A stretch of DNA of 64,000 bases from the NCBI RefSeq assembly GCF_003334335.1, contig NZ_QOWQ01000011.1; one strand, written 5' to 3'. The position numbers and the translations under genes are program-made. Source of the DNA: Escherichia coli. Lineage in GTDB: Bacteria > Pseudomonadota > Gammaproteobacteria > Enterobacterales > Enterobacteriaceae. The notes below the pieces were generated by a model. The model did no database searches and was not told the DNA's origin. It saw only the letters and a list, made by a program, of their open reading frames with translations. Below, piece after piece: positions 55,708-55,866 of this stretch (position 1 is its first letter; each line of letters starts with the position of its first letter).

Positions 55708-55780
55708 TATTTCTCTCCTCATAGATTTATGCCTGTAATGATCACGCTAAAATGTATTCGCTGAAAGTAGGTTTAACCTG

Positions 55781-55799
55781 TTGCATTAATTGCTAAAAG
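55781..55799 (+). promoter_or_regulatory. Possible MarA/SoxS/Rob box upstream of ybjC
   Basis: ttGCATtaattGCTAAAAg loosely matches marbox AYnGCACnnWnnRYYAAAY; 68-86 nt upstream of the ybjC ATG. Confidence 0.3.
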
Positions 55800-55866
55800 C
55801 TATAACTGTTAAACACAATACAGTGAAAAGTTTTAGACTGAAGGCTCACTTTGCAGAGGGAAGCGT

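Follow-up and report, generated by a model that had tools for sequence, protein, structure and literature searches.

The closest described system is the grxA/ybjC-nfsA-rimK-ybjN region of E. coli K-12 (RegulonDB/EcoCyc; Paterson et al. 2002; Sharma et al. 2017), with which the locus analyzed here shares its sequence, its marbox, and its regulators. grxA is a standard OxyR-induced gene in the literature. RegulonDB curation (PMC4207228) has OxyR activating grxA and repressing ybjC-nfsA-rimK-ybjN, and SoxS activating the latter operon under paraquat; co-transcription of the four genes is likewise taken from the literature (RegulonDB curation PMC4207228, reviews). Transcriptomic data, according to one review, suggest that YbjC and NfsA are repressed by oxidized OxyR. 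A review of nitrofurantoin resistance credits Paterson et al. 2002 with mapping the ybjC-nfsA start and a SoxS site, with describing coordinated control of ybjC and nfsA, and with assigning the promoter to class I. The ybjC promoter also serves as an oxidative-stress reporter and responds to nitrofurantoin-induced oxidative stress. For MarA, Sharma et al. 2017 (PMC5684230) reported a ChIP-seq peak whose target gene is left ambiguous as "grxA<>ybjC" and to which MEME assigned the site gcattaattgctaaa; the grxA<>ybjC fragment bound purified MarA at 0.3 uM, the lowest concentration tested. In the same paper, the SoxS ChIP-exo targets that are also bound by MarA include ybjC, and a later paper from the same laboratory names ybjC<>grxA as a known MarA target recovered by ChIP-seq.

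Other systems resemble parts of this region. At marRAB, the class I paradigm, the site for a MarA, SoxS, or Rob monomer lies upstream of the -35 hexamer, ~60 bp from the start; as a rule, class I marboxes are in reverse orientation and precede the start by about 53 to 73 bp, the modal position being near -62. Class II marboxes are in forward orientation about 30 to 42 bp upstream of the start and overlap the -35 hexamer, and at the class II promoters micF, fumC, lpxC P2, and lpxL P1 a forward marbox covers a poor -35 and ends 18 to 19 bp before the -10. At the ycgZ-ymgABC and zwf promoters, functional marboxes occupy a class I position in an unusual orientation and set a precedent for departures from the class I/II orientation rules; these promoters belong to other genes and, unlike grxA/ybjC, have no overlapping OxyR operator. 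Like grxA, oxyS, katG, ahpC, and trxC are peroxide induced and have a 37-bp operator of four half-sites abutting a weak sigma-70 -35 hexamer. Unlike those four, the grxA operator additionally overlaps a divergent promoter and a site for another activator family, so that one protein, OxyR, activates leftward and represses rightward.

Identity and gene layout of the locus

We analyzed a 64-kb stretch of E. coli DNA (the window) containing the grxA-ybjC spacer. Positions 53454 to 58454 of the window were compared with MG1655 NC_000913.3 positions 888500 to 893500, and there were 0 mismatches in 5,001 bases. Since the two are identical base for base, the locus is the known K-12 system itself and not merely a similar one. 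We consider it very probable that this is the known back-to-back E. coli K-12 promoter region common to two stress regulons, in which an OxyR operator overlaps a marbox. Sequence identity, motif statistics, conservation, and the comparison with mapped starts come from the present analysis; for MarA binding, induction by SoxS and paraquat, and the signs of OxyR control we rely on published work. The grxA/ybjC control region is well characterized and already known, and what is added here is that the full overlap of operator and marbox is made explicit, that a second, conserved marbox-like site (site B) is described, and that the mapped ybjC starts are seen to disagree with the class rules. Coordinates are collected in Table 1.

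Table 1. Features of the grxA-ybjC region, in window coordinates
Feature	Position	Strand	Details
grxA CDS (glutaredoxin 1, 85 aa)	55450..55707	-	Identical to MG1655 b0849
Divergent control region, 159 bp	55708..55866	.	grxA-ybjC gap
grxA transcription start	55730	-	5' UTR of 23 nt; Kim et al. 2012 TSS-seq, 889999 (-), 9 reads
grxA -10 hexamer GATCAT	55738..55743	-	Relaxed promoter scan; mapped start 8 nt downstream
grxA weak -35 CTTTCA	55767->55762	-	Relaxed promoter scan; touches OxyR operator edge 55767
OxyR operator GTAGGTTTAACCTGTTGCATTAATTGCTAAAAGCTAT, four half-sites	55767..55803	.	17/20 specified positions of ATAGnTnnnAnCTAT-n7-ATAGnTnnnAnCTAT
Marbox A, 20-mer GTTGCATTAATTGCTAAAAG	55780..55799	+	15-mer core 55783-55797; equals published MarA ChIP-seq/MEME site
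Marbox-like site B, 20-mer AAAGCTATAACTGTTAAACA	55796..55815	+	15-mer core 55799-55813; matrix score 13.6
ybjC 5' end	55815	+	890084 (+), start-site map used in PLoS Genet 2025 Table S2
ybjC 5' end	55817	+	Kim et al. 2012, 890086 (+), 25 reads
Alternative -10-like TACAGT	55819..55824	+	19 bp past marbox A 20-mer; intact in E. coli only
-10-like TAGACT	55834..55839	+	18 bp past -35-like TAAACA (55810-55815); relaxed promoter scan
ybjC	55867-56154	+	b0850-b0853 block (55867..58387) identical to MG1655
nfsA	56138-56860	+	Within b0850-b0853 block, identical to MG1655
rimK	56921-57823	+	Within b0850-b0853 block, identical to MG1655
ybjN	57911-58387	+	Within b0850-b0853 block, identical to MG1655

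Within the identical stretch the gene order is ybjL (-), ybjM (+), and grxA (-), followed by ybjC, nfsA, rimK, and ybjN, all on the plus strand. The sequence-only reading had described a 159-bp divergent spacer and a cluster of overlapping or tightly spaced genes; the length is exact, and the cluster has a 17-nt ybjC/nfsA overlap and gaps of 60 nt (nfsA-rimK) and 87 nt (rimK-ybjN). A simple scan found no terminator-like sites in the gaps between the four genes. Thus ybjC, nfsA, rimK, and ybjN have the marks of an operon: a single strand, overlap or close spacing, terminator-free gaps, and a conserved order. At the other end of the spacer, the ORF finder placed the grxA start at an upstream ATG at 55722 instead of the annotated start at 55707.

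The proposal that the spacer is an oxidative-stress control region holds up and was already known, each of its elements being matched by published work on the identical sequence. Its further suggestion that stress signals would control both directions stands for OxyR, which activates grxA and represses the ybjC operon and acts through an operator that the sequence-only reading had missed; marbox control of grxA would be a separate, hypothetical matter. GrxA resets OxyR, and the region is a textbook example, in compact form, of a single spacer serving two stress regulons.

Several minor features lie around the spacer. Between the convergent genes ybjM and grxA, positions 55420 to 55440 hold a strong hairpin followed by a T-run, called as a minus-strand grxA terminator; it may terminate transcription in both the ybjM and the grxA direction. 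Inside ybjC, 94 nt before nfsA, a weak start with 2 reads was recorded at window position ~56044 (Kim et al. 2012), and the promoter scan reported TTCACG-16-GATAAT at 56112 to 56139, ending at the nfsA ATG, as a possible internal promoter. A sigma-70 holoenzyme binding study places a constitutive promoter before rimK-ybjN, in the nfsA-rimK gap (56861-56920). No Rfam family matched positions 55000 to 58800, and for that reason an RNA element was rejected as the explanation of the region.

OxyR operator and marbox-like sites in the spacer

The OxyR consensus was scanned across the 64-kb window. The operator of Table 1 was the sole match scoring at least 15 (the next best scored 14), and its score of 17 was not attained in any of 300 first-order Markov resamples of the window. 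With four ATAG-type half-sites at 10-bp spacing in a 37-bp motif, it has the form of an OxyR operator. Mapped starts were converted by subtracting 834269 from the NC_000913.2 coordinate, and measured from the grxA start thus placed at 55730, the operator is centered at -55 and its edge at 55767 touches the -35 hexamer of the promoter that it activates. An operator edge abutting a weak -35 is the usual layout at OxyR-activated promoters. The built-in promoter scan, run at its own threshold, called no promoter in the grxA-ybjC spacer, which fits the presence of two activator-dependent promoters; the hexamers given for the spacer are taken from a relaxed scan.

The sequence-only reading had also pointed to a "loose" marbox-like stretch 68 to 86 nt before ybjC. 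That stretch corresponds to 55781 to 55799 and contains GCATTAATTGCTAAA (55783 to 55797), which is identical to the MarA ChIP-seq site reported for grxA<>ybjC; the window holds a single copy of it, and 100 shuffles produced none. The 20-mer around it, marbox A, agrees with the consensus AYnGCACnnWnnRYYAAAYn at 11 of 14 specified positions, and it qualifies as a marbox by the asymmetric 20-bp consensus or the ChIP-derived GCAnnnnnTGnTAAA motif. We scored the window with a 15-column matrix built from the 32 other MarA ChIP-seq sites of Sharma et al. 2017 (Table 1 in that paper), with marbox A excluded. In this leave-one-out setting marbox A scored 18.2 bits, first among ~128,000 positions on both strands of the 64-kb window (training sites: median, 12.9; maximum, 19.7). 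When the 159-bp spacer was shuffled 20,000 times with dinucleotides preserved, a score of at least 18.2 arose with a probability of 0.0003. Because it ranks first and reaches P = 0.0003, "loose" is the wrong word for what is a strong site. The core is nearly palindromic, and its reverse reading scores 11.1.

Degenerate marbox matches are common genome-wide, with thousands at low stringency and ~2,050 within 200 bp of gene starts in a published scan, and on that ground the match might be read as a functionless chance occurrence in an AT-rich spacer. The rank of marbox A and its shuffle probability speak against this, as do the MarA ChIP-seq peak over marbox A and the in vitro MarA binding of the fragment. 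So does conservation: an 86-bp core (55760-55845) that holds marbox A is at least 99% identical in 4,784 of 5,416 E. coli records. We give the chance reading practically no credence, and it is refuted by the published binding data. The 86-bp core was present in 5,414 of 5,426 complete E. coli genomes, and an 801-bp stretch around the control region was present in 5,420 of them. In search summaries for the complete E. coli genomes, plasmid records carried seven copies of the chromosomal grxA-ybjC region.

Immediately downstream lies site B, whose 15-mer, GCTATAACTGTTAAA (55799 to 55813, forward), ranks third in the window and scores above the training median of 12.9. Two matches of at least 13.6 within the spacer had a probability of 0.0001 in spacer shuffles. 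The first bases of site B, GCTAT, double as the last OxyR half-site, and its last bases form the -35-like element. The site B 15-mer is given as a predicted ybjC marbox in PLoS Genet 2025 Table S2. A full-text literature search by site sequence found marbox A in Sharma 2017 only and returned nothing for site B or the OxyR operator.

Marbox A lies wholly inside the 37-bp OxyR operator, and this overlap suggests how the two regulons would meet. In our preferred account, an oxidized OxyR tetramer binds the four half-sites at 55767 to 55803 and recruits RNA polymerase to the adjacent grxA promoter, with its start at 55730. MarA, SoxS, and Rob, as monomers, bind 55780 to 55799 with high affinity and possibly also 55796 to 55815. 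When abundant, and with OxyR reduced, they turn on a weak promoter that reads into ybjC-nfsA-rimK-ybjN and so raise YbjC, NfsA, RimK, and YbjN. Bound OxyR would cover marbox A, the first bases of site B, the basal ybjC -35 and spacer, and the first bases of the hexamer TATAAC. Because the operator lies over marbox A and the basal ybjC promoter, OxyR occupancy would lower ybjC-nfsA expression and exclude SoxS, MarA, and Rob, which would explain the curated OxyR repression of the ybjC operon. Physical competition between OxyR and MarA, SoxS, or Rob is what we infer from the overlap of the sites; the literature searched yielded no experiment on OxyR versus SoxS/MarA competition here.

ybjC starts and activator geometry

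Two 5' ends have been mapped for ybjC (Table 1), apparently in cells that had received no stress-agent treatment, as far as the sources tell. They fall within site B or at its 3' edge. Relative to these ends, the centers of marbox A and site B lie at -25 to -27 and at -9 to -11, respectively, and neither site is at a canonical class I or class II distance. TATAAC (55801 to 55806) was considered as the -10 of the mapped start and was not adopted, as the start lies 9 to 11 nt downstream, at or beyond the usual limit.

A second, stress-induced ybjC start further downstream is likely. The hexamer TAGACT lies 18 bp past the site B 20-mer and predicts a stress-induced start near 55846, from which site B would be centered at -40 (forward) and marbox A at -56 (forward) or -60 (reverse reading). 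The class I label attributed to Paterson et al. 2002 needs a ybjC start near 55840 to 55860 and fits the TAGACT option only. We infer two ybjC promoters: a basal one that yields the ends at 55815 to 55817 and an activator-dependent one near 55846 that would be silent without SoxS, MarA, and Rob. The assignment of a -10 hexamer to the activators at ybjC is likewise a prediction.

Marbox A can be compared with marRAB, since it lies at -56 to -60 from either the grxA start or the predicted ybjC start at ~55846. Unlike the marRAB site, it reads best in forward orientation with respect to ybjC (18.2 versus 11.1), whereas class I sites are normally reversed, and the mapped ybjC starts are closer to it, at -25 to -27. 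The class II pattern is matched by two pairs, site B with TAGACT and marbox A with TACAGT, for both of which the starts are predicted only.

The second of these pairs would make marbox A a class II site serving an E. coli-specific -10 at 55819 to 55824, with an induced start near 55829 to 55831. The forward-oriented 20-mer of marbox A is separated from TACAGT by 19 bp, a spacing that would give a start at ~55830 and place the marbox at -41. Among the Escherichia, Citrobacter, and Salmonella loci compared, E. coli alone combines a strong marbox A with an intact TACAGT (the closest relative, locus L005, has a strong marbox A and TACAGC). Against it, TACAGT has only four of six matching positions and lacks conservation, the class named in the review is I and not II, and the two start-site lists (Kim 2012; PLoS Genet 2025 Table S2) contain no start at 55829 to 55831; we judge this arrangement very unlikely. 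The same two lists contain no start near 55846.

From the grxA side the geometry is orthodox. Relative to the mapped grxA start at 55730, marbox A is reverse oriented and centered at -60, in agreement with the class I rule (53 to 73 bp; mode near -62). Together with the ambiguous "grxA<>ybjC" of the ChIP-seq paper, this would allow marbox A to serve grxA also or mainly, with MarA, SoxS, or Rob activating grxA directly or antagonizing OxyR. The literature accessible to our search contained no report of grxA control by MarA, SoxS, or Rob, however, and since marbox A sits inside the OxyR operator, OxyR and a marbox-bound protein are probably mutually exclusive there. A role of marbox A at grxA therefore seems doubtful to us.

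Conservation of the spacer and insertions in the locus

Orthologous spacers were compared from E. albertii, E. whittamii, cryptic Escherichia clades, Salmonella, Citrobacter amalonaticus, C. braakii and a related metagenomic contig, Klebsiella pneumoniae, Mangrovibacter, Yersinia aldovae, and three further metagenomic contigs (L011, L012, and L014). A contig scan with YbjC returned Escherichia only; protein searches and look-ups of contigs led to the more distant loci. grxA and ybjC remain a divergent pair out to Yersinia. The order ybjC-nfsA-rimK-ybjN was also found in Salmonella, C. amalonaticus, and Mangrovibacter; in C. braakii, rimK is missing after nfsA, and the Klebsiella assembly contains a frameshift. 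Y. aldovae has grxA<>ybjC-ybjN without nfsA or rimK, and in contig L012 ybjM lies directly upstream of ybjC and grxA is missing.

In most of the loci with a linked grxA (Escherichia, Citrobacter, Salmonella, Klebsiella, Yersinia, and Mangrovibacter), the OxyR operator matches the consensus at 13 to 17 of 20 positions, with weaker matches in two metagenomic loci (11/20 in L011; 12/20 at the aligned block in L014). The spacing between the operator and the grxA -10 hexamer is constant from Escherichia to Yersinia; the hexamer reads (G/C)ATCAT in Salmonella, Citrobacter, and Klebsiella and CATAGT in Yersinia. In E. albertii, a 16-bp insertion inside the operator resembles a tandem duplication (TGATTGGCTAAAACTA); it restores a fourth OxyR half-site and moves site B away by 16 bp.

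Among the spacers compared, a strong marbox A (18.2) was confined to E. coli and to locus L005, its closest relative in the set. The corresponding position scores 4.5 to 10.1 in other Escherichia, the spacers of Citrobacter, Salmonella, Klebsiella, Mangrovibacter, and Yersinia contain no counterpart, and an A-like site in L011, a short metagenomic contig, scores 11.5. Site B is better conserved across genera than marbox A: its distance to the ybjC ATG is constant throughout Escherichia (score, 10.5) and Citrobacter (13.1 to 13.6), and Klebsiella has a B-like site, GCTATGTTTGATAAA, scoring 9.0 and followed after 18 bp by TATACT. The Salmonella site B scores only 4.7. TAGACT is conserved in the form TAnAnT in Escherichia, Salmonella, and Citrobacter.

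This distribution bears on which site works at ybjC. Site B could be the ancestral working ybjC marbox, a class II site that overlaps the -35 and is used with TAGACT, and marbox A a recent high-affinity addition confined to E. coli and L005. Its forward orientation, its position at -40 from the predicted start, and the 18 bp before TAGACT follow the class II rule, and site B, third in rank in the window, is conserved along with the hexamer in Escherichia, Citrobacter, and Klebsiella spacers that lack marbox A. Set against this are the failure of either start-site list to show a start near 55846, the low Salmonella score, and the assignment of the ChIP-seq peak to marbox A by MEME; moreover, conservation of site B could reflect its other roles as an OxyR half-site and a -35-like element. 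We regard an ancestral site B as possible but on the whole unlikely. A bolder version, in which marbox A was recently gained within an ancient OxyR operator and serves grxA or displaces OxyR, and site B is the ancestral class II ybjC marbox, is one to which we attach little weight. If true, it would describe a three-way switch in which peroxide and superoxide/xenobiotic signals compete for the same 37 bp, a modest refinement.

The account that we prefer, the known K-12 region with an OxyR operator overlapping a marbox, has points against it as well. The mapped starts at 55815/55817 are off the class I and class II distances, and marbox A is weak or absent beyond E. coli and L005. In addition, ybjC and nfsA are RamA dependent in Salmonella despite the weak marbox A there, both genes being down about threefold in a Salmonella ramA mutant. 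ybjC, nfsA, and grxA go unmentioned in the text and supplement of the Salmonella MarA/SoxS/Rob/RamA ChIP-seq paper. In the Salmonella spacer, an insertion of 22 bp parts the OxyR operator from the conserved TGTTAAACA block; both site A and site B are weak, and a reverse marbox-like match (12.8) overlaps the -10 hexamer. Settling the ybjC activation geometry or the competition between OxyR and MarA/SoxS would refine a known circuit and not reveal a new one.

In the K. pneumoniae locus (L017, 1501-1872), YbjC is annotated at 123 aa, with its ATG between the B-like site and TATACT, inside the predicted promoter. Homology starts ~28 codons later, where there is no obvious start codon, and other members of the cluster are annotated at 62 aa; the annotated start is probably wrong.

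NfsA activates nitrofurantoin, and control of the ybjC-nfsA promoter thus bears on nitrofurantoin susceptibility. Insertion sequences were seen at two points of the locus. In E. coli 21AR0133, a human screening isolate (L016), an IS5 lies at the equivalent of ~55812/55813, within site B and past the OxyR operator and marbox A, and parts ybjC-nfsA from the activator sites; this insertion is plausibly relevant to nitrofurantoin susceptibility. In E. coli MB20 (L015), an IS1 with a 9- to 10-bp target duplication interrupts nfsA a few codons after its start, where ybjC and nfsA overlap (~56144 to 56153). Seven other strains (H2 to H8) showed the same two-piece match and an annotated IS1, with the junction mapping covering MB20 alone. 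The IS1 insertions in nfsA look like the knockouts that have been linked to nitrofuran resistance.
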